Source: Thermoanaerobaculia bacterium
GTDB taxonomy: Bacteria > Acidobacteriota > Thermoanaerobaculia > UBA5066
DNA length: 64,000 nucleotides
Reading direction: 5' to 3'
NCBI GenBank assembly: GCA_963816185.1
Contig: CAWFJJ010000028.1
Span: 320,001-384,000, forward strand
Positions 18,014 through 54,503 of the stretch are shown here, piece by piece. The position numbers were made by a program, and so were the translations under genes. Below the pieces are notes generated by a model that worked only from the letters and a program-made list of their open reading frames with translations, was not told where the DNA came from and did no database searches. Positions within the stretch are counted from its first letter, which is position 1; each line of letters starts with the position of its first letter.

Positions 18014-18346
18014 ATGGCGAGCCTCCGAGAGGAGTTCGAGCAGCGGTACGGACGGCTCTGGTCCGGCGCGTCGTCACTCGAAATCGGGGGCGTCACCTAC
18101 GAGCTTGAAGAGGTGATGCACAAGATCGGCTTCGGCTTCGAGGGGCTCAAGCTCATCGACGCCCCTCGGGTCGAAGCCGGCCGCGCCGCCATCCGTTTCT
18201 TCGACGGCGAGGTTCGCTGCATCGTGTGCCTCGAGCTGGGGGAGGATCTTACGATTCTGGAAGAGCATCGCGTCCACATCGCCGAGTGGCTTGGGGATGC
18301 CTACTTCGAGACGGAATGGCAGGTGAACTGCCCCATGGATTTCTGA
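18014..18346 (+). CDS. Hypothetical acidic protein, paralog of 54171..54503
   Basis: 31/85 ungapped identities to 54171..54503 by manual alignment; lies within the operon. Confidence 0.75.
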   Translation: MASLREEFEQRYGRLWSGASSLEIGGVTYELEEVMHKIGFGFEGLKLIDAPRVEAGRAAIRFFDGEVRCIVCLELGEDLTILEEHRVHIAEWLGDAYFETEWQVNCPMDF

Positions 18347-18357
18347 GAGGAGACACC

Positions 18358-18783
18358 ATGAAAGTCAAGTTCTACTACTCCAGCAAGGACAAGCCGGGCG
18401 AGCAGTACCCGTGCAACATCGCGGCCTGCCTCGAGAAGGTCAAGAAATTGAAGGCGCAGGGATACGACGTCGAGGCGATCGACGTCGCCGGTGTGGCGGA
18501 TGTGTTCCGCTTCTACCATTCGGCCCTGACCGGTCCGCCCGCGACCGTCCGCGCCGTCTTCGGCATGAAGGGAGCGCTCGAGGCCGACTTCGGCCGTACG
18601 ACGCCCGCCGTCCTCGCCTTCGGCGATCCGAAGGACCGCTACCCGACCGACGCCTACCCGCGGCAGGATCAGGGCAGGGGCGGACTCGTCGGATGCGAGA
18701 AGGCTCTCGACGACCTCGCCAAGGAGCTCGCCAAGCTGCCGGCGACCGAGGACGAAGAGGAGGAGCAGGAGGCGAGTCGTTGA
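18358..18783 (+). CDS. Hypothetical protein, possibly thioredoxin-like fold
   Basis: GAGGAG SD; MKVKFYYS..PCNIAAC..YDVEAIDV; acidic tail; stop overlaps the next start. Confidence 0.65.
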   Translation: MKVKFYYSSKDKPGEQYPCNIAACLEKVKKLKAQGYDVEAIDVAGVADVFRFYHSALTGPPATVRAVFGMKGALEADFGRTTPAVLAFGDPKDRYPTDAYPRQDQGRGGLVGCEKALDDLAKELAKLPATEDEEEEQEASR

Positions 18784-20447
18784 GCACGATCCCCGCGGAT
18801 TACCTGCCCCCGAAGGAATATCAGCCCCAGCGGATCTACAAGCTCGAGGAGTTCGCGACCTATCCCGATCCGCTGAACAGCACCGAGGAGCTGCTCGACA
18901 AGCAGGTCGCGGCGGGGAGGGGCGACAGCCGCGCGATCCTCTTCGGTGACAAGATCATCACGTATAAGCAGCTCCTGGGGGCTGCCTGCAAGATCGGCAA
19001 TGCCCTCAGGAAGCTCGGCGTCGAGGAAGCGGACCGGGTCATGCTCCGGTCGCCGAACGTTCCGCCCGCCCTCTTCACGAACTTCGGCGTCCTGAGGCTC
19101 GGAGCCGTGATGGTCCCGACCTCGCACATGCTCTCTCCGAACGAGATCGCGCACATCGCGAACAACGCCGAGGCGAAAGTGATCATCGTGGCGGCGGCCT
19201 TCCTCGAGGGGGTCGTCAAGGCCCGGGCGAATCTCAAGACGGTCAAGCATGTCATCGTCTTCGGCGGGAACCCGGAGGAGCTGAAGACGCAGGGGCTGCT
19301 CTCCTACGAAGAGCTCGTCGCGAACGAGTCGCCGGCGCTCGAACCCGTTCGCCGTCCGCGCACCGCCGTCTCCGTCCTCCTCTATACGTCTGGAACGACG
19401 GGGATGCCCAAGGGAACGGCGCACTTCATGGAAGAGGCGCTGATCGTCCCGGACACCATGGGAAAGCACGGATGGAACGTGCAGCCCGAGGACATCCTCT
19501 GCGGCCCGGCCCCCATCTCGTTGGCCGGCGGGTACTCGACGGTGGCGACGATTCCCTTCAGGTTCGGCGCCGCGGCCTCCCTGATCCCGAAGTTCACCCC
19601 AGACGGGCTCTTCGAGCTGATCCAGAGCCACAAGGTGACGATCCTGAGCGCTCTCCCCACGGCGTATCGGAAGATGCTCGAGGTTTCGGGCGCCGAGAAG
19701 AAGTACGACCTGTCGAGCCTCCGCGTTCTGACGGGCGGCGGCGAATCGCTGACCGCAAAGACGTATCTGGATTGGAAAGCCCGCTTCGGCCAGGAGATCT
19801 ACGAGGGCCTCGGAACGACGGAGATGATGTACGTCTTCGTCTCCAGCGTCGTCACCCGCAAGGTGAAGCCGGGCGCGATCGGCACCGCGGTCCCCGGATA
19901 CGAGATCCAGGTCATAACGGAAGATGGCAAGGTCGCGAAGCCGGGAGAGCTGGGAAGGCTCTATGCACGCGGTCCCACGGGACCCCTTTACTGGCGTCCC
20001 CTCGAGGAGGGCGGAAGTCTTCTCGAGAAGCAAAAATCGCTCATCCGCGAAGGCTGGGCCCTGGTCGGCGACTTCTGCACGATGGACGAGGAGGGATACC
20101 TCAGCTTCGTCTCCCGCCAGGAGGATCTGATCAAGAGCTCCGGCTACCGCATCGGACCCGAGGAGATCGAGGATGCGCTCCTCAAACACCCCGCCGTGGC
20201 GGACGCGGGCGTGATCGGGATCCCGGATCCTGTCCGGGGACAGAACGTCAAGGCCGCCGTCATCCTGCGGCCCGGCTACACGCCGAGCGAGGAGCTGAAG
20301 CAGAAGCTCATCGACAGCTGTCGGGACCACATCGCGATTTACAAGCTGCCGCGCATCGTGGAGTTCGTCACGGAGCTGCCGCGAACGCTGCAGGGAAAGC
20401 TCCTTCGGCGGGTCCTGCGAGACAAGGAGGTCGTCGCCACGAGATAG
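18780..20447 (+). CDS. AMP-forming acyl-CoA synthetase (benzoate/2-aminobenzoate-CoA ligase-like)
   Basis: YTSGTTGMPKG, EGLGTTE, IKSSGYRIGPEEIE, PRTLQGKLLR (acetylatable Lys); N-terminal LPP..YP..LN..ELLD. Confidence 0.88.
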   Translation: MSTIPADYLPPKEYQPQRIYKLEEFATYPDPLNSTEELLDKQVAAGRGDSRAILFGDKIITYKQLLGAACKIGNALRKLGVEEADRVMLRSPNVPPALFTNFGVLRLGAVMVPTSHMLSPNEIAHIANNAEAKVIIVAAAFLEGVVKARANLKTVKHVIVFGGNPEELKTQGLLSYEELVANESPALEPVRRPRTAVSVLLYTSGTTGMPKGTAHFMEEALIVPDTMGKHGWNVQPEDILCGPAPISLAGGYSTVATIPFRFGAAASLIPKFTPDGLFELIQSHKVTILSALPTAYRKMLEVSGAEKKYDLSSLRVLTGGGESLTAKTYLDWKARFGQEIYEGLGTTEMMYVFVSSVVTRKVKPGAIGTAVPGYEIQVITEDGKVAKPGELGRLYARGPTGPLYWRPLEEGGSLLEKQKSLIREGWALVGDFCTMDEEGYLSFVSRQEDLIKSSGYRIGPEEIEDALLKHPAVADAGVIGIPDPVRGQNVKAAVILRPGYTPSEELKQKLIDSCRDHIAIYKLPRIVEFVTELPRTLQGKLLRRVLRDKEVVATR

Positions 20448-20502
20448 CGCATCACCCTAGGTCAAGACCGTCTCGCCGAATGACGGCACCTGAACGAAGG
20501 AT

Positions 20503-21501: not shown

Positions 21502-21504
21502 GGC

Positions 21505-28463: not shown

Positions 28464-28480
28464 CGCAACACGTGTGCCGG
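28464..28480 (-). promoter_or_regulatory. Sigma54 (-24/-12) promoter for the Hmc-like operon
   Basis: The minus strand reads CCGGCACACGTGTTGCG, i.e. GG-N10-GC with GGCAC and TTGC, about 50 bp upstream of the start at 28416. Confidence 0.7.
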
Positions 28481-28578
28481 CAAAGCCAGGCCGAGTGTGT
28501 CGAGGCCGCAACCGCTCATTCGAAACTGGTTCCGATCGATTGCGCAAGAAATCGAGGAGCGGTCAAGGGCTGACCCAC

Positions 28579-28630
28579 TGTCTCGATTCCATGACACACA
28601 TCTCGAACATGTTGCGATTCCGAGAGCACA
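28579..28630. promoter_or_regulatory. Candidate tandem enhancer (UAS) sites for the sigma54 activator
   Basis: TGTCTCGATTCCATGACACA (28579-28598) and TGTTGCGATTCCGAGAGCACA (28610-28630), both TGT..CGATTCC..CACA. Confidence 0.45.
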
Positions 28631-43927: not shown

Positions 43928-45775
43928 GTGTCTCTCTCTAAGGAGGAGATCCTCGAGGATTTCGAGAAGCTGGTTCGGGAGGGCATCCTCCTTGGCGCCG
44001 ACCGCGACCCCGCGATCAGGGACGGAGCCGAGTTCGACCGAGGGCTCGTCAAGAAGAAGGGGAAGGGAAGCCGATTTCTCATCCGGAAGGTCCCCCGGAG
44101 ATCGATTCTCCTGAGGCGCTGGGCACGTCTCTTCGAGAACGCGATCTCGCCGTGCGCCCTGCTCGACGCGCTCTCCGCCAGGATCCACGAGTTCGAGCAC
44201 CGGGAGAAGCTTCTTCTCTTCAGCAGGGACCGGATCATCTATGACGCGGAGATCTTTCACGGGGAGGAGGGCGTCGGCGAGCTCACCCTCAGTTTCGCGT
44301 CGCTCCGGGATCCGTCTCTGGGATTGCGCGGTTATTTCTCGAGCGAGAGGCTGCGGGTCGTCTACATCGAGCACATCCGCCTGACGGCTCAGAAGTCCGG
44401 ATACGCCTCGGCACTCTTCCGTCATTACGAGCGGCTCTTTCACGACCTCGGATTCAACCAGTTCCGGCTCAGTGCCGCCCTCTCCGTCGGCCGGTACTAC
44501 TGGGCGCAGGAAGGGTTCGATTTCTCGGAAGGGTCGGAGGTTGGCACGAGGAAGGCGGAGCTCAGGGCCCTCGTGAAGGAGAGGGGCCTTCCCGTCCGGG
44601 AGGTGGAGATCGGACGTCTGAACCACGCCTACGATTTCGCCCGCTTCAGAAGAGAGCTCAGGATTCCCGTCTATCGGGATGCGGAGGGATTTTATTCGTC
44701 GAAGGGCGACGCCCGCTTTCGCGAGGAAGTCTCCCTGCCGCTTGGAAAGGCGTTTCTTCTCTCCTCGGCGCCCTGGGAGGGATACAAGACGATTTACACG
44801 AACACCCCGCGGAGAACGGGTTTCGTCACGTCGAGGGAGTATCTCTCGCATCGAACGCGCGCCGGGCACGTCGAGAGCCCCGGGCGACTTCGCGTGCTCA
44901 GGAAGGCGATCGACAAGGAAGGCCTGAGAAGGAGCCTCGTGACCCTGTCGCCGTACGTCCCCGACCTCGAATTCCTCGAGGGAATTCACCGGGCCGAGTA
45001 CCTGGCCAGATTTCGCGAAAGCGTCCGGAGCGGCAAGAAGGTGTTCGCCACGGCTGACTGCTCGATTTCCGCGGCAAGCTTCGACGTCGCGCTTCTGGCG
45101 GCCGGCGGCGTAATGGCGGGTGTGGATGCGGTCCTGAACGGGAGGGTCGACAATGTCTTCTGTGCCGTCAGGCCGCCCGGACACCACGCGGGACGGAATT
45201 CCGCGATGGGATTCTGCTTCATCAACAACGTCGCAGTGGGAGCGGTCTACGCGCGGGCGGTCTACGGCGTGGAGAAGATCTTCATCCTCGACTGGGACGT
45301 CCATCACGGCAACGGGACGCAGGAGATCTTCGAGGGAGACCCTCTGACGTATTACTGCAGCCTCCACGAGCACCCCACGTTCTGCTTTCCGGGCACGGGC
45401 CGGAGGATGGAGCGCGGGACGGGCGTAGGCGCCGGGTTCACCCTGAACCTGCCGCTGAAGCCGCACACGAAGGACCAGGAGCTGATGGAGATCTTCGAGC
45501 GAGAAGTCGTCCCGGAGATCGAGCGCTTCGAACCCGGCCTCATCATGGTCTCCGCGGGCTTCGACGCGCACGAAAGCGACCCCATCGCCGACCTCGATCT
45601 CACGGAGAAGTCCTTTGCTTACATGACGCGCAGGGTCTGCGAGCTGGCGGATCGACACTGCGGGGGCAGGATCGTGTCCGTCCTGGAAGGAGGGTACGGT
45701 CCCGCCCTGGCCTCGTCGACACTCGTCCACTTGAAGATTCTTCAGGGAAGGAGTCCGGAATGTTCGTCGGAATAA
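43928..45775 (+). CDS. Zn-dependent deacetylase (HDAC family) with N-terminal GNAT-like domain
   Basis: HDAC motifs RPPGHHA, GFCFINN, DWDVHHGNGTQ, SAGFDAH, LEGGY. N-terminal QKSGYASALF..GRYYWAQEGF. Confidence 0.82.
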   Translation: MSLSKEEILEDFEKLVREGILLGADRDPAIRDGAEFDRGLVKKKGKGSRFLIRKVPRRSILLRRWARLFENAISPCALLDALSARIHEFEHREKLLLFSRDRIIYDAEIFHGEEGVGELTLSFASLRDPSLGLRGYFSSERLRVVYIEHIRLTAQKSGYASALFRHYERLFHDLGFNQFRLSAALSVGRYYWAQEGFDFSEGSEVGTRKAELRALVKERGLPVREVEIGRLNHAYDFARFRRELRIPVYRDAEGFYSSKGDARFREEVSLPLGKAFLLSSAPWEGYKTIYTNTPRRTGFVTSREYLSHRTRAGHVESPGRLRVLRKAIDKEGLRRSLVTLSPYVPDLEFLEGIHRAEYLARFRESVRSGKKVFATADCSISAASFDVALLAAGGVMAGVDAVLNGRVDNVFCAVRPPGHHAGRNSAMGFCFINNVAVGAVYARAVYGVEKIFILDWDVHHGNGTQEIFEGDPLTYYCSLHEHPTFCFPGTGRRMERGTGVGAGFTLNLPLKPHTKDQELMEIFEREVVPEIERFEPGLIMVSAGFDAHESDPIADLDLTEKSFAYMTRRVCELADRHCGGRIVSVLEGGYGPALASSTLVHLKILQGRSPECSSE

Positions 45776-46416
45776 GGATGACACGGAACGTCTTCACGGT
45801 CTCCCCGGGAGACACCTTGAAGTTCGCGAGCAACGTCCTGCACGAGAACCGGATCCATCAGCTTCCCGTCGTCGAACGCGGGGAGCTGGTCGGCTTCGTG
45901 TCGGGTACCGACATACGCAATTCGACGTTCGAGACGTCGACCGTTACGCAGCTCGGCAAGATCCTCGTGAAGAACAAGACCGTCCAGGAGATCATGACGC
46001 GCGAGGTGATCACGGTCAGCCCGGGGGACACGGTCGAAGACGCGCTTCTGATCTTCCACAAGAAAAGGCTGGGCGCCCTGCCCGTCGTGGACGGGAAGAA
46101 GCTCGTCGGAATCATCACGAAAGCCGACGTTCTGGCGGCTTTCTGCGACACCCTCAGGATCGAAGAGCCCGGCGTGAGAATCGAGGTGCTCCTCCCGCGC
46201 GACCCCGGTTCGCTCATTCATCTCGTGCGGCGCCTCGGGGAGCTGAGAACCGAGATCCGAAGCCTGATCTTGTCCCCCTTGCGGGAGGGCTTCGTGGCTT
46301 TCATCCGGCTCTCGACGATCGACGTGGCTCCCGTGAAGAAGTCTCTCAAAGACGCCGGCTTCACCGTGCCCGAGCTTTCGGATTTCTTGGCTGGAACCGT
46401 GCGCGACGAATCATGA
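45760..46416 (+). CDS. acuB: CBS-pair + ACT protein (AcuB-like) 1
   Basis: IHQLPVVE, IMTREVITV, LGALPVVD, C-terminal ACT-like domain. Confidence 0.75.
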   Translation: MFVGIRMTRNVFTVSPGDTLKFASNVLHENRIHQLPVVERGELVGFVSGTDIRNSTFETSTVTQLGKILVKNKTVQEIMTREVITVSPGDTVEDALLIFHKKRLGALPVVDGKKLVGIITKADVLAAFCDTLRIEEPGVRIEVLLPRDPGSLIHLVRRLGELRTEIRSLILSPLREGFVAFIRLSTIDVAPVKKSLKDAGFTVPELSDFLAGTVRDES

Positions 46417-46432
46417 GGACTCGAGGTGTGCC

Positions 46433-47062
46433 ATGTTGATTCGAGACATCATGCGGAGCCCGGCCGTTGCCATCTCCGCCGATACGACGCTCCAGGACGC
46501 CTACCAGACCATGCGCGACAGGGAAATCCGGCACCTGCCGGTTCTCGAGGGCGAAAAGCTCGTCGGAGTCGTCACGGATCGTGACCTGAGGCTGGCGACC
46601 AGCGCGCTCGCGCCATCACCGTTCCCGCCAGGCAGCCGCGTCTGCGAGGTGATGACGCTGGAACCGCTGACGGCGGACGCCTCGGACCCGGTCGAGGACG
46701 CGGCGCGCGCGATGCGCGAGCGGAAGATCGGCTGCCTGCCGGTCCTGGACGACGGGCGTTTGATCGGCATCGTCACGGGCCTCGATCTGCTGGACGCCTT
46801 GATGCGCTTGACGGGCGTGCACAAGCCCTCGGGCCGCCTGGAAGTGCGGCTCGCCGACCATCCGGGCGAGCTCGCGCGGCTCACGGGCTTCGTCAGCCAC
46901 CGTGACCTGAACATTCACTCGATCCTGACGTATCCCGAAGGCTCCGACTCGGTTCGGACCGTCCTGCGCATCGGCTCGATCGAAACCGGGCTGCTCGCAC
47001 AAGACCTGCGCCGTGCCGGTTTCGAGGTGCTGTGGCCCCCGGAGAAGCCGTGCCCGCGGTGA
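46433..47062 (+). CDS. acuB: CBS-pair + ACT protein (AcuB-like) 2
   Basis: IRHLPVL, VTDRDLR, KIGCLPV, LTGVHKPSGRLEV..DHPGEL, GFEVLWP. Confidence 0.82.
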   Translation: MLIRDIMRSPAVAISADTTLQDAYQTMRDREIRHLPVLEGEKLVGVVTDRDLRLATSALAPSPFPPGSRVCEVMTLEPLTADASDPVEDAARAMRERKIGCLPVLDDGRLIGIVTGLDLLDALMRLTGVHKPSGRLEVRLADHPGELARLTGFVSHRDLNIHSILTYPEGSDSVRTVLRIGSIETGLLAQDLRRAGFEVLWPPEKPCPR

Positions 47063-48189
47063 TCTACTCACCGGCCTACGGGAGATACTCCTTCGGCGAC
47101 GAGCATCCCTTCAGCCCCGCCCGCACCGACATGTTGCTCGACCTCGTCCGTGCGCTCGGGCACCCCGTGGAAACGGTCGAACCGAAGCCGGCGACACGGG
47201 AGGAGCTCCTCGACGTGCACGCGGACGCGTATGTCCGCCGCGTGGAGAAGCTGAGCGTGGGCGAGCTCGTTCCGGACGGACCGGAGTATGGGCTCGGAAC
47301 GCAGGACACGCCTTCGTTCCCCGGCATGGACGAGGCGGCGCGGTTGCTCGTCGGCGGAACTTTGCTTGGGGCGCGGCTGATCTCGGAAGGGAAAGAGAAA
47401 CGCGTCCTCCAGCTCGGCGGGGGGCTGCATCACGCGCGCCCCGGCGTCGCGTCGGGTTTCTGCATCTACAACGACCTCGCGATCGCGATCAACTTCCTCA
47501 CCCGGAACGGACTGAAAGTGGGCTATCTCGACATCGACGTCCACCACGCCGACGGTGTTCAGCAAATCCTCGACGAAGACCCGCGCGTCTTGACGGTGAG
47601 CCTTCACGAGTCGGGGAAGTACCTCTTCCCGGGGAGCGGCGAGATTCGTGAGCTCGGCTCGGGTGCCGGCCGCGGCCTGAAGCTCAATCTGCCGCTGGAG
47701 CCATTCACCGAAGGCGAGAGCTACCTGGAAGTTTTCGAGAGGGTGATCCCGGCGGCGCTGCGGCACTTTCGCCCCGACGTCCTCGTCGTCCAGGCGGGCG
47801 CGGACGCGCATTTCGACGACCCGCTCGCCGACCTCATGCTGACGACGCGCGATTACGAAGCCATCTTCAAGCGGATTCTGGAGTTGGCGGACGAATTCAC
47901 CACGGGCCGGGTGCTTTTCACGCTCGGAGGCGGCTACTCGTTCCGCGCCGTGCCGCGCGTGTGGGCGATCCTCTACCTCCTGATTCACGGTCTCCCCGTG
48001 GCGCGGGACCTTCCGGAGTCGTGGCGGAGCAAATGGAGCCGCGCTTCGGAAAGCGAGCTCCCGCTCACCTTCCACGATCCGAATCCGTCGCATGCCGACA
48101 TTCCGAACCGCTACGAGATCGCGCACCGCAACCGGCAAGTGGCCGAGCGGCTGTTGGACCTGACGCGGCAATACTGGTTCCCGAGGTAA
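47050..48189 (+). CDS. acuC: Acetoin utilization protein AcuC (protein lysine deacetylase)
   Basis: FGDEHPFSP, YGLGTQDTPSF, GGLHHA, SGFCIYND, DIDVHHADG, LHESGKYLFPG, GADAHFDDPL, GGGY. Confidence 0.9.
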   Translation: MPAVIYSPAYGRYSFGDEHPFSPARTDMLLDLVRALGHPVETVEPKPATREELLDVHADAYVRRVEKLSVGELVPDGPEYGLGTQDTPSFPGMDEAARLLVGGTLLGARLISEGKEKRVLQLGGGLHHARPGVASGFCIYNDLAIAINFLTRNGLKVGYLDIDVHHADGVQQILDEDPRVLTVSLHESGKYLFPGSGEIRELGSGAGRGLKLNLPLEPFTEGESYLEVFERVIPAALRHFRPDVLVVQAGADAHFDDPLADLMLTTRDYEAIFKRILELADEFTTGRVLFTLGGGYSFRAVPRVWAILYLLIHGLPVARDLPESWRSKWSRASESELPLTFHDPNPSHADIPNRYEIAHRNRQVAERLLDLTRQYWFPR

Positions 48190-48226: not shown

Positions 48227-49420
48227 TTACTTCGGCGCGATCATCTTTCCGGCGGCCTTCGCAGGAGGGTAGAGAAGGACGTGTCGTCCGTTCTGGATCT
48301 GGAAGATGCCGACTTGGTAATGCTGCGGGTTCCCGTGCTCGTCGAATTGCAGCCGCTCCAGCGGGAGCAGCAGGTCGGTTTCGCGTAGGGCGTCGCGGAC
48401 GGCATCCCGCTCCGGAACTGCGGACGCGCGGGACGCCTTCTCGAACGCCGCCAACACCGCCCGCGCCGCGGTGTATCCGTACATGCTGAGCGGCGCCGGC
48501 GGATGCTTGAACTCCCTCGTGAATCCCGCCTCGTAAGAGCGGCTGCCCGCGAGATCTCCGGAGAGCGACATCCCGGGCTCCCAGACGATCGCGCCGATTG
48601 CGCCCTCCGCGACGGGGCCGAGCTGCGCGACGAGCGCCGGGAACTCCATTCCGAAGGCGCCCACGACTGCGAACCCGGAGCTCGTCTGGCCGGAGACCTG
48701 CCGGAGAAGAACGAGGTTGTCCGCGAAAAACCCGTCCATGAGGAGGAGCCGCGCGCCGCTTGCCTTCACGCGGGCAAGGAGAGGGATGAAATCCGGCGTC
48801 CCTGTCTGGAAGCTCTCGAACGTGGAGACTCTGACCCCGTTCGCCTCGAGCCGTTCTTTCTGGAGCCGGGCGAGCTGCGTCGCGCCCGGCGTCGCCGAAT
48901 GGAGGATTGCAACGTCTTTCGCGGGCAGGAGCTCGAGAGGAACGGCCGTCGTGGCGTCCACGAACGGCTCGAGTCGGCTGATCCTGAAGAACCAGGCGTT
49001 TCCGCGCTGCGTCAGCCGCTGATCGAGCGAGGAGCTCGCCACGTAAGGGACGCGTTCTCGCTCGGCCACCTGGGCCACCGGGCCGACGATGCTGTCGACG
49101 TATCCGCCCACGAGCGCGCTGACTCGTTTGTGCGTGGTCAGCTCCTGGGCTGCGGTCGTCGCTTCGTCCGGTCTCCCGCTGTCGTCCCGCGTGATCAGGG
49201 TGACCGGGCGTCCGCGGACCCCGCCGGCGGCGTTCGCCTCCGAGACGGCGTAGACGACGCCTTCGTGCACGGCCGCTCCCTGGGCCGCCATGACGCCGCT
49301 GAGGGACTCGACCTCGCCGATTCGCAGGTCCACGGCGCTCTTCGGGTCGCGGGAGCACCGCGCGGCGTAAAGCCCCAACGCCAGCAGCGGGCCGAATGCG
49401 GCGAACCGTGGAACCTTCAC
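48227..49420 (-). CDS. Branched-chain ABC transporter substrate-binding protein (LivJ/K family)
   Basis: Signal peptide with Cys, LRIG...SLSG, NAAGGVRGRPVTLITRDD, WFFR, LQFDEHG. Confidence 0.85.
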   Translation of the reverse strand: MKVPRFAAFGPLLALGLYAARCSRDPKSAVDLRIGEVESLSGVMAAQGAAVHEGVVYAVSEANAAGGVRGRPVTLITRDDSGRPDEATTAAQELTTHKRVSALVGGYVDSIVGPVAQVAERERVPYVASSSLDQRLTQRGNAWFFRISRLEPFVDATTAVPLELLPAKDVAILHSATPGATQLARLQKERLEANGVRVSTFESFQTGTPDFIPLLARVKASGARLLLMDGFFADNLVLLRQVSGQTSSGFAVVGAFGMEFPALVAQLGPVAEGAIGAIVWEPGMSLSGDLAGSRSYEAGFTREFKHPPAPLSMYGYTAARAVLAAFEKASRASAVPERDAVRDALRETDLLLPLERLQFDEHGNPQHYQVGIFQIQNGRHVLLYPPAKAAGKMIAPK

Positions 49421-49445
49421 GCGGTGACCGGTTCCGTGCCGAGGG

Positions 49446-50414
49446 TCAGAAGGCGGGCAGAGGCTGCCGCGCTTCCATCAAGAGCTGCCTGGTCCCGTCG
49501 GACCGGGCCGTGTCGCGCTCCATCTGGATGGAAGCGAGGCGAGAACGCCATGGGGTGAGGTCGAACGTTTCGTCCTTCGGCGAGGCGAGGCAGGCGTCGA
49601 TCAGGTCCCGGTAGAAGCGGACCATGCGCTCGACGAGAGGCACGGGGTATTCGCGCCCTTGTACTTTCAGGCACGCGACATCGAGATCGATCAGGTGCGG
49701 GATGTCTTCCAGAAGAAAGAATGCATCGTTCTTCAGCGCCACGCTGCTTTCCCACTTCTCGTCGCCGGAATAGAGGTCCCAGGACTCCAGGCAGACGCGG
49801 TAATCGAGACCGCCGCGGTTCGGACTTCCCTTGAACAGGTCCTTCCCGAAGGCGTCCGTCGTGCGCTCGAGACGGTGATAGGGAGACATCCAGCATTTCC
49901 CGAGGTACGTGTAGCACTTGTTCGCGTGGATCAGGATCTCGATCCCGACGTCGATGCGCTCTTTCCGGGAGGCCAGCTCCCTGAGGGTCAGCTTCGTGTC
50001 GGCGACCACCTGCGAGACGCCGATCGACCGGTAGAACCTCACGTCCTCGTCGTTGAGGATATTGGCCCCGATCGAGGCGTGGATCGTGAGATGCGGAAAT
50101 CTCCGGTGGACCTCGGCGATCGCACCGATGTCGGTCATGATCGCCCCGTCCACTCCCCAGGATACGAATCGCTCCATCTTTGCCAGCATGGGGGCGATCT
50201 CGTGAGACTGCATGTTCGTGTTGAAGGCCACGCGCAGCTTGGCGCCGCCCGCGTGGGCGATTTCGATCGCGGTGCGGACGTCCTCGTCGGACATCTCGTA
50301 TTTGTCGCGCCTCCGGCTCCAGCCGCGAGGACCGACGTAGATGGCGTTCGCACCGTTCGCGGCCGCCCCTCGGACCATCGGAAGATTCCCTGCCGGCGCC
50401 AGAAGTTCGACCAT
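49446..50414 (-). CDS. Peptidase U32-family Fe-S protein (UbiU/TrhP-like; third Cys replaced by Asp)
   Basis: ELLAPAGNL, NAIYVG, HASIGA, HANKCYTYLGKCWMS, NRGGLDYRVC, LKVQGR. Confidence 0.88.
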   Translation of the reverse strand: MVELLAPAGNLPMVRGAAANGANAIYVGPRGWSRRRDKYEMSDEDVRTAIEIAHAGGAKLRVAFNTNMQSHEIAPMLAKMERFVSWGVDGAIMTDIGAIAEVHRRFPHLTIHASIGANILNDEDVRFYRSIGVSQVVADTKLTLRELASRKERIDVGIEILIHANKCYTYLGKCWMSPYHRLERTTDAFGKDLFKGSPNRGGLDYRVCLESWDLYSGDEKWESSVALKNDAFFLLEDIPHLIDLDVACLKVQGREYPVPLVERMVRFYRDLIDACLASPKDETFDLTPWRSRLASIQMERDTARSDGTRQLLMEARQPLPAF

Positions 50415-50434
50415 GATCTTCCTCCTCGAGCTGC

Positions 50435-51388
50435 CTATGATTCCGCGCGCGAGATCGTCGGAAGGGACCCGAGCGCTTCCGGCCGAAGCCCCTGGTACTC
50501 CATTCCGCTCTTGCCGAAGTAGAAGCCGTTGCAGAGACCGACGTGCGCGTGACGCCGAAGCGTTTCCCACCACGTCTCGTTTACGTCGCCGTCGCCTGCG
50601 ATCGCCCCTTCCAGAGCCGCGCGATACACGGCCGCGACCTCACGCCGGTAATCGGGAGTCTCCGAGACGGTTTCGATCCGGAAGTGCCGGTGGCCCCCGG
50701 CGATCAGACGCGGCAGATGGTCGAGCATGCACACGTCCTTGCCGCTCAGAATTCCCTTTCCCAGCGACTTCATCGCCCAGTCTCCCTGCTTCAGGAACAG
50801 CTCTTTCTGGCAGAGGTCGGGGCACTTAATTCCCCACTTCTCCTCGTAATCCAGCAGGAAGCAATAATCCGAGACGCCTAGCGGCATCTTGCCGTGGACG
50901 AGAAGCTCCAGGGGCGCGGAACAGGCTGCCGTGATCTCGTGGATCTCGTCCAGGCTCAGCTCGTAATTCGGTGTGAACCTCACGGCCCCGAAGCCGCGGA
51001 GGACCTCGGCGCCAGCCGCGGTGTAGACGTTCGCGAAGCCCCCGACGTGGACGGGGAGCTCCGGAAACTCCTCGTGTGCGATCCTCAGGATCCCGAGGTT
51101 GTGGACCTCGACCGCTTCGGCGCCCGCTGCCGCCGACGCTTCCAGCATCTTTCTCACCTTCGGCAGGAAATCGTTCCGCGGCGCCGCGTACGTCGCCGCA
51201 TAGGCCTTCTTTCCCTGGTCGCGAAGGATGTGGAGCCCTTCCTTGAGGTCTCCGAGCTGCTCCAGGAAGTTCGATTCGTAGAGCCGGCAGTAGATGTCGC
51301 CGAGGTAAACCGCGTCGTAGCCGGTCAGGTTCGAGGCTCGGAGGTCTCGCAGGTTCGCGATCGTCGTGTTCAGCTCGAAGCCGGTCAT
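50435..51388 (-). CDS. Peptidase U32-family Fe-S protein (UbiV-like Cys pattern)
   Basis: AVYLGDIYCRLY, NVYT, ELSLDEI, HGKMPLGVSDYC, KCPDLC, CNGFYFGKSG. Confidence 0.85.
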   Translation of the reverse strand: MTGFELNTTIANLRDLRASNLTGYDAVYLGDIYCRLYESNFLEQLGDLKEGLHILRDQGKKAYAATYAAPRNDFLPKVRKMLEASAAAGAEAVEVHNLGILRIAHEEFPELPVHVGGFANVYTAAGAEVLRGFGAVRFTPNYELSLDEIHEITAACSAPLELLVHGKMPLGVSDYCFLLDYEEKWGIKCPDLCQKELFLKQGDWAMKSLGKGILSGKDVCMLDHLPRLIAGGHRHFRIETVSETPDYRREVAAVYRAALEGAIAGDGDVNETWWETLRRHAHVGLCNGFYFGKSGMEYQGLRPEALGSLPTISRAES

Positions 51389-51438
51389 GAGCGGTCAGTC
51401 TCCCGTCGCATTTCGCGCCTCGCCATTCGTCCTCTCCC

Positions 51439-52389
51439 TCATCGTCCGACGACGGCCCACGCCGTCGGCAAGGAGGCCGGTGGCGGCTCGAACGGGTCCG
51501 TCATCGCCCGAGCGTCGAGCGCCTTACGGTAGCGGCGCACGAGCGGCGCCAGCAGCTCCACCGGAAGGCTTCGGCCTTGCAGCTTCAGGACATCGGCTCC
51601 CGCCTCGGCATAGGCGCCGACATCCGCGATCCGGCTGATCTGCCGGCTCGGAAAAAGGCGCGTGTCGACATGACGACCGGCGGCGAAGAGCTCCCACGGT
51701 TGCTGGCAGATTCTGAAGCAGGCCCCGACGCCCCCTCGCTTCACGCTGCCGGTCTGCCGCAAACCCTGATGAGCACCCTCCGGCGCCTCGCCCGCGAAGT
51801 CCCTCGACGAGCCTGCGGCCCGGAAGGGCGACGGCTTCAAATGCACGTAGCTCGGCATCCAGCATTTTCCGAGCAGGACGAACTCCTCGACCATGTGGAC
51901 CATGATCTCCACGGAGATTCCCCCGACCGTTCTGATCTCGCGCACCTCGGCGGGGCTCACCGTCCCCGGCAGGACGACGGCGTGGGCGCCCAGGTCCCGG
52001 AAGAGAGCGACGTCGGCGACGGTCTGGGCGCCGCAGCCGATGCTGGCGGTCAGCCGCAACCTCTCGAAGCGTCGCTTGAGGTCCGCGAGGATTCCGACGT
52101 CGTTCACGATGACATCCCGAATCCCGAGCTCCAGGAGGGCGGCGACATGCTCGAAGAGTCGTGCACGTTCCGCGGGCTTCGGAATCGTGTTGAGGGCGAC
52201 CTGGAGACCCCGGCCGGCCGAGGTCACCTCGTCCCACGCGGCCTCGAGCTCGTCCCAGCGCAGCTCTCTCCGCGCCCCGCCGCGGCTCCAGCCCTCGAGG
52301 CCCACATACACGGCGTCTGCCCCCGCGCCGAGAGCGGCCCGGACGGCCTCGAGACTTCCGGCCGGCACGAGGAGGAGAGGCACTGCCAT
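51439..52389 (-). CDS. Peptidase U32-family Fe-S protein (UbiU/TrhP-like; first Cys replaced by Glu)
   Basis: LLVPAGSLEAV..GADAVYVG, ASIGCG, HMVEEFVLLGKCWM, GACFRICQQPW, LKLQGR. Confidence 0.85.
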   Translation of the reverse strand: MAVPLLLVPAGSLEAVRAALGAGADAVYVGLEGWSRGGARRELRWDELEAAWDEVTSAGRGLQVALNTIPKPAERARLFEHVAALLELGIRDVIVNDVGILADLKRRFERLRLTASIGCGAQTVADVALFRDLGAHAVVLPGTVSPAEVREIRTVGGISVEIMVHMVEEFVLLGKCWMPSYVHLKPSPFRAAGSSRDFAGEAPEGAHQGLRQTGSVKRGGVGACFRICQQPWELFAAGRHVDTRLFPSRQISRIADVGAYAEAGADVLKLQGRSLPVELLAPLVRRYRKALDARAMTDPFEPPPASLPTAWAVVGR

Positions 52390-52510
52390 CACCCCGGCCA
52401 AAATACTACGTGCCGTCGACTATTCATCGCGTCGAGTGATTTTAGGCTGCGATTCCGGCCGCGAGTCAAGATGTTTCTCTCGATTCGCTCGTACCCTGTA
52501 ATCTCCGGCG

Positions 52511-53035
52511 ATGGCAGCGCGCCACGGTCTCACGGAAACGTACCGCACGATGGCGAATCTGCGGCGGTTTTTCGAGTCGGTCCGGAGGACGATCACGGCC
52601 GAGCCGACGACCGGGGGCCTCACGCCCGCCCAGCAGTTCGCCCTCCTGACGCTCGCGGGCAGCCCGTCGGACGCCCCCCTGACGATCGGCGACCTGGCGC
52701 GCGAGACGTTTGCCACGATGAACACGACCTCCGCCCTCGTGAGGAGGATGGAGCGCACCGGCCTCGTCCGCACGACGCGCTCCCCGAGGGATCGCCGCTT
52801 CGTCTACGTCAAGCTGACGGCATCCGGCGAACGCCGCCTTCGTCCATCCACGGCCGCCGTTGCAAAGGCCCTGCGCGCTGCGGCCGACGAGCAGGGAAGA
52901 GCCCAGCTCCGCACCGCGTTCGAGACGTGGTTCGACAACTGGGGCGCCGTCATCAAGGCGCTGTCGTCCTCTCCCCGCAGGCGTGGGCGCCGAACGCGCC
53001 GGCAAGTCGCCGGGAGATGGCGGGCTCGCCCTTAA
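52511..53035 (+). CDS. MarR family transcriptional regulator
   Basis: GLTPAQQFAL, TIGDLA, LVRRMERTGLV, DRRFVYVKLTASG; divergent from the U32 genes. Confidence 0.85.
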   Translation: MAARHGLTETYRTMANLRRFFESVRRTITAEPTTGGLTPAQQFALLTLAGSPSDAPLTIGDLARETFATMNTTSALVRRMERTGLVRTTRSPRDRRFVYVKLTASGERRLRPSTAAVAKALRAAADEQGRAQLRTAFETWFDNWGAVIKALSSSPRRRGRRTRRQVAGRWRARP

Positions 53036-53040: not shown

Positions 53041-53346
53041 CTACTTCCTCTTGTCGCTCACCTGGGTCAGCAGCGAGTCGCTGACGTGCGTGACGAGGCC
53101 GTGGAAGACGACCTTGACCTTGCGGAAGCCCGGGTCGGTGAGGATCTTCTCGAGCGCCGCGAGGCTCTCGAGGTCGACCTGGACGAGCCGCTGCGGGGAG
53201 GATCCGCCCAGCATGCTCTTGTAGGTGCGGACGGCCTTGACGCCTTTGAACTTCAACCAGATGTTCTTGCCGGGGCCCTTGGTGTACCTCTCGTACTCCC
53301 TGAGCTTCCCGGGCAGGACGTCGAACCTGTACTCGAACGTGACCAT
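53041..53346 (-). CDS. Hypothetical small protein, possible dimeric alpha+beta barrel (NIPSNAP/EthD-like)
   Basis: AAGGAGG SD; YRFDVLPGKLREY..GVKAVRTY..VDLESLAALEKIL. Confidence 0.6.
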   Translation of the reverse strand: MVTFEYRFDVLPGKLREYERYTKGPGKNIWLKFKGVKAVRTYKSMLGGSSPQRLVQVDLESLAALEKILTDPGFRKVKVVFHGLVTHVSDSLLTQVSDKRK

Positions 53347-53365
53347 GGAACTGCCTCCTTGATTC

Positions 53366-54142
53366 CTATCTTCCCGTCCAGACGGCCGCTCTCTTGCCGA
53401 GGAACGCCGAGATCCCTTCCTGTGCATCGGACGTCATGGAGCTCATCGACATGATCTCCTTGGTGTACGCGTACGCTTTCGGCTGATCGAGGTCGATCTG
53501 CGAGTAGAAAGCCTGTTTCCCGATGGCGAGCGTGACGGGGCTCGCCTCCGCAATGTGCGCCGCGAGCTTGCGAGTCTCCTCACGGAGCGCGCCTGAAGGC
53601 ACGACGCCGTTGACGAGCCCCCAGTCAGCGGCCGTCGTCGCGTCGATCGGGTCCCCGGTCAAAAGCATCCGGAGGGCGCGCTTGCGACCGACCGCACGGG
53701 TCAACGCGACCATCGGAGTCGCGCAGAAGAGGCCGATCTTGACTCCCGGCGTGGCGAACCAGGCCTCCTCGGCGGCGACCGCGAGGTCACAGGTCGCCAC
53801 GAGCTGGCATCCCGCCGCGGTGGCGACGCCCTGAACCTCGGCGATGACGGGCTGCGGAATCGACTGGATCTTCATCATCAGCTCGGCACAGACGTCGAAG
53901 ATCTGGCGGTAATCGTTGATGTTCCTCCCGACCAGCTCGCTGAGATCGTGTCCCGAGCTGAAGACCTTCCCGGCCGCGGCGAGAATGACGGCGCGGAGCT
54001 GCCGGTCCTCTCCGATGCGTCCGAGGCAGTCCAGCAGCTCCCGCATGAGCGCCAGCGAAAGGGCGTTGCGCCTCGCGGGTCGGTTCAGCGTCACGACCGC
54101 GACGGCCCCATCCGTCTCGAAGCAAAGGCTTTCGTATCCCAT
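53366..54142 (-). CDS. Enoyl-CoA hydratase/isomerase (crotonase, ECHDC3-like)
   Basis: TLNRPARRNALS, FSSGHDL, ATAAGCQLVATCDL, TPGVKIGLFC, DAQEGISAFLGKR. Confidence 0.88.
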   Translation of the reverse strand: MGYESLCFETDGAVAVVTLNRPARRNALSLALMRELLDCLGRIGEDRQLRAVILAAAGKVFSSGHDLSELVGRNINDYRQIFDVCAELMMKIQSIPQPVIAEVQGVATAAGCQLVATCDLAVAAEEAWFATPGVKIGLFCATPMVALTRAVGRKRALRMLLTGDPIDATTAADWGLVNGVVPSGALREETRKLAAHIAEASPVTLAIGKQAFYSQIDLDQPKAYAYTKEIMSMSSMTSDAQEGISAFLGKRAAVWTGR

Positions 54143-54170
54143 CTGAAGTCTCCTTTGCCGGCCGCTCTCT

Positions 54171-54503
54171 CTAGTGCCCGCAATATTGCGGGAAGTACTC
54201 GTCGTCCCCGATGAACTCGGGGAACTGGACGCGCACTTCGCCCAGGGGATGGAAGTCGGCGTCGAACTCCAGGGCGACCACACGCTGGTCCTGGCCGTCG
54301 TAGTACCGGAAGACATAGCGCCCGTCAGGCAGAGCCAGAGCATCGATCGCGCGGCTGTCGTCGAAGTTGAGAGCCATGCTTACCAGCAGGTCGGGGACCG
54401 AATAGACGACGCCCTTGATCGTCAGGGTCTGTTCGCCGCTCCCGAGGGGGCCGTAGCGGCTCTCCATCAGCGCCGGGCCTTTCAACCCAGCCACGGCGCT
54501 CAC
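54171..54503 (-). CDS. Hypothetical acidic protein, paralog of 18014..18346
   Basis: RYGPLGSG..IKGVVY..IDA..GR..RYYDG..VVALE..EVRV..EFIGD; overlaps the upstream stop. Confidence 0.75.
   Translation of the reverse strand: MSAVAGLKGPALMESRYGPLGSGEQTLTIKGVVYSVPDLLVSMALNFDDSRAIDALALPDGRYVFRYYDGQDQRVVALEFDADFHPLGEVRVQFPEFIGDDEYFPQYCGH

Follow-up and report, generated by a model that had tools for sequence, protein, structure and literature searches.

Two copies of an undescribed small protein probably mark the halves of one acyl-CoA gene system in a Thermoanaerobaculia genome

The window analyzed here, 64,000 nucleotides of a contig from a Thermoanaerobaculia bacterium, carries two small genes that lie 36 kb apart and encode similar proteins, one (copy 1) among genes for CoA-transferases and a ligase and the other (copy 2) near a gene for a Pat-type protein. 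The question is whether the two are truly related and, if so, what one kind of small protein does in two places. Features are collected in Table 1, where synteny is counted as k/n loci, n being the loci with sufficient flank.

Table 1. Genes of the two arrays and their flanks in the window.
Feature	Position	Strand	Evidence and conservation
MFS transporter, first gene of copy-1 array	13253..14524	+	Pfam MFS_1, E 1.8e-45
Family III CoA-transferase, subunit a	14581..15996	+	Pfam CoA_transf_3, E 5e-83; 8/8 loci
Family III CoA-transferase, subunit b	15950..17361	+	Pfam profile split across two frames; 10/10 loci
140-aa Zn-ribbon protein, two CxxC pairs, disordered Lys/Gly/Pro tail	17363..17785	+	Weak zinc-ribbon matches only
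Cys-rich protein, ~64 aa, directly 5′ of copy 1	17802..17996	+	tblastn with L072 orthologue, 73% identity
Small protein copy 1	18014..18346	+	Clade beta; tail W-x3-C-P-M-D-F
141-aa conserved unknown protein	18358..18783	+	Stand-alone gene in L090 and others, 56% identity; 15/15 loci
AMP-forming acyl-CoA ligase	18780..20447	+	Pfam AMP-binding, AMP-binding_C; 13/13 loci
HDAC-type deacetylase (615 aa), CBS protein, CBS+ACT protein (AcuB-like), HDAC-type deacetylase (AcuC-like)	43928..48189	+	Pfam Hist_deacetyl, CBS, ACT
Periplasmic binding protein and three U32-family proteins (UbiU/UbiV/TrhP-like)	48227..52401	-	Separate transcription unit
MarR-family regulator, divergent from U32 genes	52511..53035	+	Pfam MarR_2, 43.9 bits; 18/20 loci
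Conserved unknown protein, ~101 aa, last gene of copy-2 array	53041..53346	-	22/22 loci
Enoyl-CoA hydratase	53366..54142	-	Pfam ECH_1, E 9.5e-62
Small protein copy 2	54171..54503	-	Clade alpha; tail Y-C-G-H; probable start 54494
DUF4177-like 72-aa protein	54500..54718	-	Pfam PF13783, 23.7 bits, below cut-off of 25; 24/24 loci
Alpha/beta-fold serine hydrolase (GHSLGG)	54777..55514	-	Pfam; 22/22 copy-2 and 8/8 Terriglobia-class loci
Stand-alone PAS-domain protein	55516..55962	-	Pfam PAS_4, PAS; 21/22 copy-2 and 7/7 Terriglobia-class loci
Pat-type protein, GNAT plus ADP-forming acyl-CoA synthetase-like part	55946..58783	-	Pfam Acetyltransf_1, CoA_binding_2, Succ_CoA_lig, ATP-grasp_5; 18/20 loci
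Amidohydrolase_2 family protein, divergent from Pat	58880..59740	+	Pfam PF04909, E 3.5e-33; 15/17 loci

Both reading frames are open over the spans given in Table 1, and BLASTP of the pair gives a gapless alignment with 32/94 identities (E 8e-20), slightly better than the 31/85 of the preliminary description, whose motifs (RYGxLxSG, IDA, GR, R[FY][FY]DG, LE, ExRV and E[WF][LI]GD) fall within it, most of them being kept across the whole family. At E < 0.1, the 5.09-Mb assembly contains exactly these two family members. Separate groups of orthologues match the two copies at 67-94% identity (159 proteins for copy 1 and 319 for copy 2), and a profile made from both copies recovers each one in other genomes. 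Against their orthologues, copy 1 has a dN/dS of 0.15-0.24 (13 pairs) and copy 2 of 0.08-0.21 (15 pairs), so both are under purifying selection (0.08-0.24 overall), and AlphaFold2 folds the protein confidently (mean pLDDT 83, pTM 0.75). Because of the orthologue sets, the two-copy profile matches, the low dN/dS and the confident fold, we conclude that the likeness is homology and not chance. A chance likeness of two spurious ORFs could be imagined in GC-rich DNA of 62-72% G+C with many long shadow ORFs, but its probability is next to nil, and it is refuted by the pair score, the hundreds of orthologues per copy, dN/dS values well below 1, the fold and the operon positions that are kept.

Ancient paralogues, the two copies share an undescribed alpha+beta domain of ~105 residues, and their family has two deep clades, with copy 2 in alpha and copy 1 in beta. 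The family had been called unannotated, and this stands: Pfam and NCBIfam searches of both copies matched no family, and the source names of the orthologues are all "hypothetical protein". It is also rare, with 78 clusters among 1.84 billion representatives in a profile search, and the small protein occurs in 6 of 401 sampled Acidobacteriota genomes. For copy 2, the second GTG at 54494 (107 aa) is the more likely start because most database orthologues are 107 aa long and AAGGAAG lies 10 nt upstream. A Cys near the C-terminus of both copies had also been pointed out, and the tails NCPMDF and YCGH do exist, but the Cys is invariant in the copy-1 clade only: all extracted clade-beta sequences have Cys-Pro in the tail, while the copy-2 Cys is Ser or Gly in several orthologues of its clade, many clade-alpha members have lost it, and several distant members are without it. 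The tail is predicted by AlphaFold2 to be disordered. A Foldseek search with the fold returned nothing at E <= 1e-3, and a VIA search reached a top Z of 4.9, neither giving a pointer to function; the weak structural neighbors (Z under 5) are carriers of lipids and ligands, LolA and NTF2-like proteins among them. The family alignments lack an enzyme-typical residue pattern; the invariant positions (Gly, Asp, Arg, Glu) are scattered over the sheet, and the model places the charged or polar ones (Glu9, Asp49, Arg61, Asp64, Glu74 and Glu84) on strands of one sheet.

The placing of copy 1 within a CoA-transferase/ligase operon is borne out by an array whose order is strictly conserved (ligase 13/13 and CoA-transferase b 10/10): MFS transporter, two family III CoA-transferases, Zn-ribbon protein, Cys-rich 64-aa protein, copy 1, 141-aa protein and AMP-forming ligase. 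The transporter matches the NCBIfam L-lactate MFS transporter equivalog at 392 bits (cut-off 320), and an MFS gene is upstream in 8/8 copy-1 loci with enough flank. The catalytic Asp of subunit a aligns with that of a solved formyl-CoA transferase and is kept in subunit b, which has an apparent frameshift near 16957-16969, an intact orthologue aligning in two frames. Zn-ribbon orthologues are present in every lineage with the CoA-transferase pair (13/13 loci) and the Cys-rich protein in 14/14 copy-1 loci, and in L071 the Cys-rich and 141-aa proteins are fused. The 141-aa gene was also considered as an N-terminal extension of the ligase and rejected as such, since it stands alone elsewhere; it was found in 5 of the 401 sampled genomes, each also carrying the small protein. 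The TTG start of the ligase overlaps the stop of this gene (TTGA), and the ligase ends in PRTLQGK, which would fit PX4GK, the motif at which Pat/AcuA targets are acetylated.

The copy-2 array runs Pat, PAS, alpha/beta hydrolase, DUF4177-like, copy 2 and enoyl-CoA hydratase. The gaps beside both copies are not empty but contain more small genes, the Cys-rich and DUF4177-like genes having been overlooked in the preliminary description. The stop of the DUF4177-like gene overlaps the first GTG of copy 2; its product has 23 invariant columns across 31 sequences from several lineages, and the type occurs in 3 of the 401 sampled genomes, again only alongside the small protein. In the hydrolase, Ser100, Asp174 and His221 are invariant in the alignment. 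The hydratase truly starts at ATG 54142, behind the ribosome-binding site AAGGAGA, and is dispensable, as it is in just 16/22 loci. The ~101-aa protein that ends the array had no match in a Pfam search, and a minus-strand "117-aa ORF" was rejected as a gene because it is a shadow of the MarR gene. RNA-library contigs of relatives cross the hydrolase/DUF4177, DUF4177/copy-2 and copy-2/hydratase junctions, where DNA carry-over is possible. A suggested link to the U32 trio holds at best in part, with U32c in 17/19 copy-2 loci and U32b and U32a in 16/18, a trio 68-77% identical beside an NC10 member fused to a ubiquitin-like (Ubl) domain, and a further recurrence beside one other lineage; but the trio is a separate unit behind the opposite-strand MarR gene and is absent from Terriglobia arrays.

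Do the two arrays belong together? The CoA-transferase pair, Zn-ribbon, ligase, PAS, hydrolase and small protein(s) form one contiguous array in Terriglobia and Acidiferrales (8 loci); the Terriglobales array is without the DUF4177 gene (4/8 loci), and the Amidohydrolase_2 gene is 3′ of the small genes in 4/8 Terriglobia-class loci. In 7 other Thermoanaerobaculia-type genomes, a single contig carries both copies, at distances of 9.7-35.5 kb. Distant members on metagenome contigs L070-L072 and L075-L095 again have these array genes around them, and the module with CoA-transferase and ligase is beside the family in every lineage with readable flanks. From the contiguous Terriglobia arrays and the shared contigs, together with phyletic co-occurrence, we conclude, in agreement with the preliminary description, that the two copies probably mark halves of one conserved gene system that is split in this genome. 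Eleven ORFs scanned in the intervening DNA (22-22.5 and 28.5-38 kb), a putative Hmc-like redox block in the preliminary description, fall into signaling, PEP-utilising, TauE and transport families. The gene set is a conserved, uncharacterized one for making acyl-CoA, with a core of heteromeric family III CoA-transferase, AMP-forming ligase with its three tiny companions (the Zn-ribbon, Cys-rich 64-aa and 141-aa proteins), PAS protein, serine hydrolase and DUF4177-like protein. The set of this genome further includes writers and erasers of lysine acylation: Pat, a pair of HDAC-type deacetylases and a CBS/ACT protein resembling AcuB.

The proposed tie to acyl-CoA metabolism thus stands as far as the module goes, but fusions in relatives point equally to control of protein modification. 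The fusion partner there is an AcuC-like deacetylase, a JAB peptidase or a ubiquitin-like domain. The deacetylase fusion is found in 17/41 metagenome loci and also as a 43-member protein cluster with the source name "AcuC-like"; its loci have the hydrolase directly upstream (10/10 loci reaching far enough) and GNAT and PAS genes downstream, the window's PAS protein being 63% identical to that of this lineage. The Prok-JAB fusion is in L067 and L068 (Pfam-confirmed), the latter also with a ThiF-type E1, an 85-aa Ubl-like gene, GNAT, DUF4177 and hydrolase, and 42 NC10-type proteins carry the fusion with the Ubl-like domain. Lysine erasers are not universal partners, since no deacetylase or GNAT is in the visible flanking DNA of Terriglobia arrays, L070/L071 and L060-L066; the universal neighbors are the hydrolase and, mostly, DUF4177.

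Because copies lie in both halves of the system and relatives are fused to lysine-demodifying enzymes, the small protein probably serves the acyl-CoA gene set in an accessory or regulatory role. Our best guess, a tentative one, is that it is an adaptor or regulatory domain for control of the ligase by lysine modification. As a non-catalytic docking or regulatory module, it would link the acyl-CoA ligase both to lysine-amide hydrolases, whether deacetylase or isopeptidase, and to the hydrolase/DUF4177 pair and thereby tune reversible modification of the ligase's catalytic lysine. The flexible tail at its C-terminus, with Cys-Pro in clade beta and Gly-His-COOH in clade alpha, would reach into a partner. 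Several observations run against this adaptor. The invariance of Cys-Pro in clade beta exceeds the needs of a plain docking domain; only 9/17 loci place HDAC2 within 10.5 kb of copy 2, and erasers are missing from several arrays; and in one Terriglobales genus a second copy adjoins xanthine-dehydrogenase-type genes, away from all genes of the module. No docking is apparent in the model of the deacetylase fusion (linker 279-295 and tail 401-403 at pLDDT < 50; pTM 0.59), and the fold searches were uninformative on function.

Alternatively, though we think it unlikely, the protein could be a thiol carrier whose clade-beta Cys-Pro tail moves an acyl group or persulfide between the ligase/CoA-transferase pair and the hydrolase, the clade-alpha copy being a non-carrying partner. 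The constancy and predicted disorder of that tail would suit a carrier, as would the Cys-rich and Zn-ribbon proteins encoded alongside and the relatives in which the domain is beside ThiF, a Ubl ending GEKG(G) and JAB, with a weak TusA match on one contig. But PtmU4-type enzymes are fused two-domain proteins, while the window's CoA-transferases are two one-domain genes with a catalytic Asp in both; neither window copy has a ThiF, Ubl or JAB gene nearby, the Cys is lost or missing in the members described above, the domain is neither beta-grasp nor a known carrier family, and the deacetylase fusions are left without explanation.

Less probable still is that the small protein is a structural subunit of a metabolic hydrolase. 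Together with the DUF4177-like protein and the alpha/beta hydrolase, it would make up a single enzyme that cleaves an ester or thioester of the pathway supplied through the transporter, CoA-transferases and ligase, and its fusions to other hydrolases would be incidental. The hydrolase is the most constant neighbor, being present also in L060-L065 and L070/L071, its catalytic residues are invariant, and the highly conserved DUF4177-like gene overlaps or abuts copy 2; the junction-spanning RNA contigs, weak and from relatives, point the same way. Against such a subunit, copy 1 is 36 kb from the hydrolase and adjoins the ligase side, the Terriglobales array can do without DUF4177, and the fusions to deacetylase, JAB peptidase and Ubl are again unaccounted for. 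We give similarly low weight to a small-molecule sensor like ACT, CBS or PAS that binds an acid, acyl-CoA or nucleotide of the pathway and signals to a fused or neighboring enzyme. Stand-alone forms together with C-terminal fusions to different enzymes are the usual pattern of regulatory ligand-binding domains, and the polar residues of the sheet and the lipid and ligand carriers among the structural neighbors agree with it, but those structural matches are below a meaningful level, and a sensor leaves the conserved C-terminal tails unexplained.

Two known systems can be set beside this one. In the thioacid cassette (PMC6006322), an acyl-CoA synthetase beside a type III CoA-transferase works with sulfur-carrier proteins, and the proposed thiol carrier would act in a pathway of that kind. 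For the adaptor that we prefer, a precedent is AcuB, a small protein with no catalytic role that two papers (PMC13039410, PMC13121692) describe as binding an AcuC-type deacetylase and controlling it.

The small proteins encoded by copy 1 and copy 2 align by BLASTP without gaps between residues 9-102 of the former and residues 14-107 of the latter, with 32 of 94 positions identical, 51 similar, and an E value of 8e-20. Both reading frames are open, and the earlier statement that the same small protein occurs twice, 36 kb apart, is thus borne out. Searched in six frames, the complete assembly (5.09 Mb in 30 contigs, with the window at 320001-384000 of contig 28) contains no third copy below E 0.1. 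A collection of 5.8 billion proteins includes 159 relatives of copy 1 and 319 of copy 2, with 67-94% identity among the matches listed, and the sources name them "hypothetical protein" or nothing at all. Nei-Gojobori comparisons with equal-length orthologues place dN/dS between 0.15 and 0.24 in the 13 pairs for copy 1 and between 0.08 and 0.21 in the 15 pairs for copy 2. Both small ORFs are genuine genes.

The family is also unannotated, as had been claimed, since neither small protein reaches a curated cut-off in Pfam-A or NCBIfam; the small protein P0001 has no match there, and P0002 has only chance-level 12-bit matches against cut-offs of 27 and 400. A profile search with the family found nothing below E 0.2 among PDB sequences, Rfam has no match anywhere in the 64-kb window, and the PADLOC models match neither the small proteins nor their window neighbors nor the fused forms described below. 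The sole PADLOC match is to generic TPR models, in a TPR neighbor of the small gene at the relative locus L062.

The genes around the two copies are listed in the following table. We rejected a ligase with a 160-aa N-terminal extension or a frameshift, because that stretch is a separate 141-aa gene.

Genes bearing on the two small-protein loci (window coordinates)
Feature	Position	Strand	Remark
Cys-rich gene, ~64 aa	17802-17996		fills the 229-bp "gap" before copy 1; overlooked in the preliminary description
Copy 1	18014-18346	+	
141-aa gene	18358-18783		separate gene after copy 1, also overlooked
AMP-forming ligase	start 18780 (TTG)		overlaps stop of the 141-aa gene
HDAC-type gene 1	43928-45775		
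CBS+ACT gene	46433-47062		
HDAC-type gene 2	47032-48189		
MarR-family regulator	52511-53035	+	divergent from the U32 genes
Enoyl-CoA hydratase	start 54142		28 nt past the end of copy 2
Copy 2	54171-54503	-	
DUF4177-like gene, 72 aa	54500-54718		occupies the 273-bp "gap" upstream of copy 2, likewise overlooked; its stop codon overlaps that copy's first GTG
Pat-type GNAT	55946-58783		

The 72-aa protein scores 23.7 bits against PF13783 (cut-off 25; E 5.7e-5; positions 13-65 of 65), and its orthologue in L062 scores 21.5 bits against the same cut-off. To our knowledge DUF4177 has no known function, and a search of the full-text literature gave nothing on its function among the matches listed (titles and abstract openings). 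Neither this protein nor the 141-aa protein has a significant match among PDB sequences. The best PDB sequence matches of the hydrolase are monoacylglycerol lipases, at 36.8 bits; an RsbQ-like signaling hydrolase was considered and set aside, with no RsbQ-type structure among the PDB matches listed. The junctions between genes of the copy-2 array are bridged by contigs, mostly 85-95% alike, from soil metatranscriptomes (two studies, three runs). These contigs are not proof of expression, because their source organisms are relatives, carried-over DNA may have contributed, and a contig does not demonstrate a single transcript.

Several other features of the window deserve mention. Apparent frameshifts interrupt CoA-transferase b (16957-16969), a PAS/histidine-kinase/receiver gene (20952-22639), and a sigma-54 activator (28474-29985); in all three the Pfam profile is divided over overlapping ORFs in different frames, reflecting either assembly indels or pseudogenes. 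Beside the MFS gene, a 396-aa protein (11693-12883) scores 105.7 bits against the ExtI selenite/tellurite-operon porin model (cut-off 150), and several copy-1 loci also have a homologue upstream of their array. The transporter itself suggests lactate and other short acids as candidate substrates of the ligase. At its N terminus, the first HDAC-type deacetylase is extended by ~310 aa that match no Pfam family. The CBS+ACT gene stands directly upstream of the second deacetylase (46433-48189), which is the AcuB-AcuC arrangement of Bacillus.

To follow the neighborhoods, the window proteins were compared by tblastn with all loci that carry a family member, and the counts are given in the next table.

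Conservation of window genes near the small gene (loci with the gene/loci with enough flank)
Gene	Copy-1 loci (15)	Thermoanaerobaculia-type copy-2 loci (29)	Terriglobia-class loci (8)
MFS	8/8		
CoA-transferase a	8/8		4/4
CoA-transferase b	10/10		5/5
Zn-ribbon	13/13		5/5
Cys-rich	14/14		6/6
141-aa	15/15		6/6
Ligase	13/13		6/6
Pat		18/20	
PAS		21/22	7/7
Hydrolase		22/22	8/8
DUF4177-like		24/24	4/8
Enoyl-CoA hydratase		16/22	
101-aa protein		22/22	
Amidohydrolase		15/17	4/8
MarR		18/20	
U32a		16/18	
U32b		16/18	
U32c		17/19	
Binding protein		11/18	
HDAC2		9/17	

The Terriglobia-class array runs CoA-transferase a, b, Zn-ribbon, Cys-rich, 141-aa, ligase, PAS, an extra hydrolase in some loci, hydrolase, DUF4177 where present, small gene, a second small gene in some, and amidohydrolase. 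It is both window clusters joined, with two small-gene copies in tandem in Acidiferrales and one in Terriglobales. Seven other genomes have the two copies on a single contig at distances of 9.7-35.5 kb, and the 36.5 kb of the window is the widest spacing. The proposal that the two window blocks belong to one system, made in the preliminary description, therefore holds. The U32 trio is kept near copy 2 (16-17 of 18-19 loci) but is a separate transcription unit. Between the U32 genes and the end of the array, a conserved "117-aa ORF" was rejected as a gene, being the reverse-strand shadow of MarR, and the U32 trio with the binding protein thus forms its own unit, divergent from MarR. The hydratase is an optional part of the array, because six loci lack it altogether; in two other genomes (L034:10286-11195 and L036:10286-10754) copy 2 is separated from the hydratase by 0.5-0.9 kb of additional DNA. 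An exception to the shared context is the second copy in one Terriglobales genus, which adjoins xanthine-dehydrogenase-type genes, and no module gene was found within 15-20 kb around it in L096 (G239:C21) and L097 (G147:C93). At both of these loci the small gene is downstream of the genes for the 2Fe-2S, molybdopterin-binding, and FAD subunits of that enzyme type.

The family is rare. A profile of both subfamilies found 78 proteins at E <= 0.001 and 43 at E <= 1e-10 among 1.84 billion cluster representatives, and a few of the 78 are RHS-repeat or VWA proteins matched through short stretches. Within an even sample of the window's phylum, the family occurs in 6 of 401 genomes and 2 of 227 genera. 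The 141-aa protein is in 5 of these genomes and the window-type DUF4177 in 3, all among the 6 with the small protein, a pattern to be read as co-distribution rather than as a statistical test because the genomes are close kin. A peptide-pattern scan of 185,579 species genomes gave at least 51 loci, a lower bound because a single pattern was used, nearly all of them labeled Thermoanaerobaculia, Terriglobia/Terriglobales, or Acidiferrales. Among 26 diverse members Gly13, Asp49, and Arg61 are invariant, and Glu9, Gly18, Asp64, Glu74, and Glu84 are conserved in more than 90%. In a maximum-likelihood tree, 86 domain sequences fall into two deep clades (separating branch 100/99): clade alpha consists of copy 2 and all Terriglobia-class sequences and nothing else, and clade beta comprises copy 1 together with every fused form and the remaining stand-alone forms. 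Two contigs labeled Acidithiobacillales (L006) and Rhizobium sp. (L026) carry arrays 80% identical to that of the window; their small proteins nest within the Thermoanaerobaculia clades of the tree, and the contigs are probably mis-binned.

Fused forms came from a metagenome scan seeded with the divergent forms, which yielded 41 loci that we annotated by Pfam (60 + 30 ORFs) and tblastn. At 17 of the 41 the domain is the C terminus of an AcuC-like deacetylase (protein cluster of 43 members). Where the contig allows, the neighbors of this fusion are a 4HBT thioesterase and the hydrolase (directly upstream in 10 of 10), followed by GNAT, DUF4177-like, PAS, citrate synthase, ligase, 141-aa, Zn-ribbon, and CoA-transferase pair genes; in L080-L092 a few genes separate the ligase from the GNAT and the deacetylase fusion. 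In NC10-type contigs (L055-L059) the domain is preceded by a separate N-terminal, ubiquitin-like (Ubl-like) domain of ~90 aa ending in GEKGG, an architecture shared by 42 proteins, of which two carry the name Methylomirabilis/NC10 in their source. At L067 and L068 a Prok-JAB domain precedes the small domain according to Pfam, and L069 looks alike; L068 also has a ThiF-type E1, an 85-aa homologue of the NC10 N-terminal domain, GNAT, DUF4177, and hydrolase. An alignment search found no fused form of 710-2025 aa, and the range of 200-700 aa was covered by the search of cluster representatives only.

Stand-alone distant members keep similar company. L070/L071 encode the CoA-transferase pair, Zn-ribbon, a Cys-rich/141-aa fusion, ligase, small, DUF4177-like, and hydrolase, and L060-L066 encode hydrolase, an uncharacterized 285-aa protein, small, an uncharacterized 459-aa protein, DUF4177-like, and TPR. 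In both L060-L066 and L055-L059 the small gene is followed by the larger of these uncharacterized proteins (459-463 aa, with 41% identity between the groups) and by a TPR protein, and L062 has a HEPN gene and a weak TusA match downstream. Beside the NC10-type fusion lies a U32 trio 68-77% identical to that of the window; the three window proteins (49446-52401) match their counterparts at L058:3289-6280 with 77%, 74%, and 68% identity, which is unusually high for such distant phyla, and in L058 a PrmA-like methyltransferase adjoins the trio.

AlphaFold2 predicts the small protein with a mean pLDDT of 83 and a pTM of 0.75 (27-sequence alignment), in the order helix, beta-hairpin, helix, four-stranded meander, helix, with the last residues disordered. 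Foldseek found no PDB match at E <= 1e-3 (best E 0.076), the ESM Atlas gave no usable match, and VIA-align found no chain at Z >= 5 among 48,161; its best Z of 4.9 (72 aligned residues, rmsd 5.6) falls short of what models without a true relative typically reach at best, and none of these searches points to a function. The top matches of the structure searches, PepSY, BLIP, and cystatin-like as well as LolA and NTF2-like folds, likewise pack a helix on a curved antiparallel sheet, but all are weak (Foldseek E >= 0.076, VIA Z <= 4.9) and do not share the motifs. Unlike ThiS/MoaD sulfur carriers and ubiquitin-like proteins, the small protein has neither the beta-grasp order nor a Gly-Gly end, and the two copies end in CPMDF and CGH. 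No catalytic motif is recognizable in the domain. In a model of the deacetylase fusion (mean pLDDT 67.7) the linker and tail are disordered and the deacetylase part is poorly modeled from a shallow alignment, so this model is uninformative on docking.

The observation of the pair is real, and the function of the small protein is what we infer from its surroundings. With the exception of the second Terriglobales copy, the domain is encoded with the ligase/CoA-transferase/hydrolase set, and it is fused in three ways to lysine-modification machinery, namely a deacetylase, a JAB isopeptidase, and a ubiquitin-like domain. The ligase of the window ends in ...ELPRTLQGKLLRR, which includes PRTLQGK. 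PX4GK is the motif with the acetylatable catalytic Lys in Acu/Pat-controlled acyl-CoA synthetases, and we take PRTLQGK to fit it. Taken together, the gene-set context, the three fusions, the flexible conserved tail, the Pat, HDAC, and AcuB-like neighbors, the PRTLQGK end, and the precedent of AcuB lead us to propose, tentatively, that the small domain may be a docking or regulatory module tying lysine-modification erasers and the hydrolase/DUF4177 pair to the ligase. It would dock deacetylase- or isopeptidase-type erasers to the ligase and would link the hydrolase/DUF4177 pair to it as well.

The main rival, which we regard as unlikely, is that the small protein is a thiol carrier. Every clade-beta sequence with a complete end has a tail of W-x3-C-P plus 2-3 residues, and this invariant Cys-Pro suits a carrier; in clade alpha the usual ending is [C/S/G]-G-H, and several sequences have Ser or Gly where the Cys would be. 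A Cys near the C terminus, noted earlier in both copies, is accordingly a feature of the copy-1 type and not of the family, and its frequent absence from clade alpha speaks against a carrier. The Cys-rich and Zn-ribbon neighbors favor one, as do the ThiF, Ubl, and JAB contexts in relatives and the thioacid cassette of the PtmA3/PtmU4 type, which PMC6006322 describes as an acyl-CoA synthetase encoded near type III CoA-transferase domains with sulfur-carrier proteins and which the ThiF, Ubl, and JAB genes adjoining the small domain in some relatives also recall. PtmU4 is a single two-domain protein, whereas here the transferases are two separate one-domain genes (471 aa for a, ~450 aa for b), set apart by domain architecture and each with the catalytic Asp, and the window has no sulfur-carrier genes. 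Four small genes lie between CoA-transferase b and the ligase in one tight operon; the cassette is defined by a spacing within two genes.

A structural subunit of the hydrolase seems quite improbable to us, and a small-molecule sensor domain equally so. Slightly less likely still, in our view, is a new protein-thiol shuttle, in which the Cys-Pro tail of the clade-beta copy would be charged with an acyl group or persulfide by the AMP-forming ligase or by the CoA-transferase pair and discharged by the serine hydrolase, copy 2 and the DUF4177-like protein would act as a scaffold, the Ubl, JAB, and AcuC-like amidase fusions would be different ways to load or clear the tail, and the whole would carry groups by a system with no kinship to ACP, ThiS/MoaD, or DsrC.

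If the docking proposal is true, an unnamed domain family links acyl-CoA formation to erasers of lysine modification (deacetylase, JAB/ubiquitin-like) in soil Acidobacteriota, NC10-type bacteria, and other uncultured soil lineages. The conserved set has ~12-15 genes, at least five of them for small proteins without described function, and we found no description of family or gene set in the libraries and papers searched. For annotation, the rule is that the two clusters belong together. Candidate partners of the small protein are the deacetylase, the hydrolase or DUF4177-like protein, and the ligase. Because the family is rare and its hosts uncultured, wider impact is limited unless the tail chemistry is new.

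Among known systems, the heteromeric benzylsuccinate CoA-transferase BbsEF likewise has two adjacent paralogous family III subunits. Each window transferase matches both of the solved Bbs subunits. The subunits 9fn0_A and 9fn0_B score 94-95 bits with CoA-transferase a, and 9fn0_B scores 85 bits with b, but the best solved matches are formyl-CoA and succinate-hydroxymethylglutarate transferases, and there are no other bbs genes. This likeness concerns the neighboring CoA-transferases, as that to DUF4177 concerns a partner gene, and neither concerns the small protein itself. The Acu/Pat type of control is another such system. In Bacillus, the small, non-catalytic AcuB binds and inhibits AcuC and thereby sets the acetylation of acetyl-CoA synthetase, according to PMC13039410 and PMC13121692. 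The window neighborhood similarly has a Pat-type GNAT, HDAC-type deacetylases, an AcuB-like CBS+ACT protein, and an AMP-forming ligase, and one lineage fuses the small domain to an AcuC-like enzyme. The GNAT and deacetylases, however, are in the conserved neighborhood of the ligase and not in its operon, several lineages have the small protein without a deacetylase in the DNA seen, and the small domain shows no relationship to CBS, ACT, or any other Pfam family. Compared with the acu operon, the system adds the CoA-transferase pair, four tiny proteins, a PAS protein, and a serine hydrolase. The system resembles the control of acyl-CoA synthetases by acetylation that is already known, to which it adds new parts.
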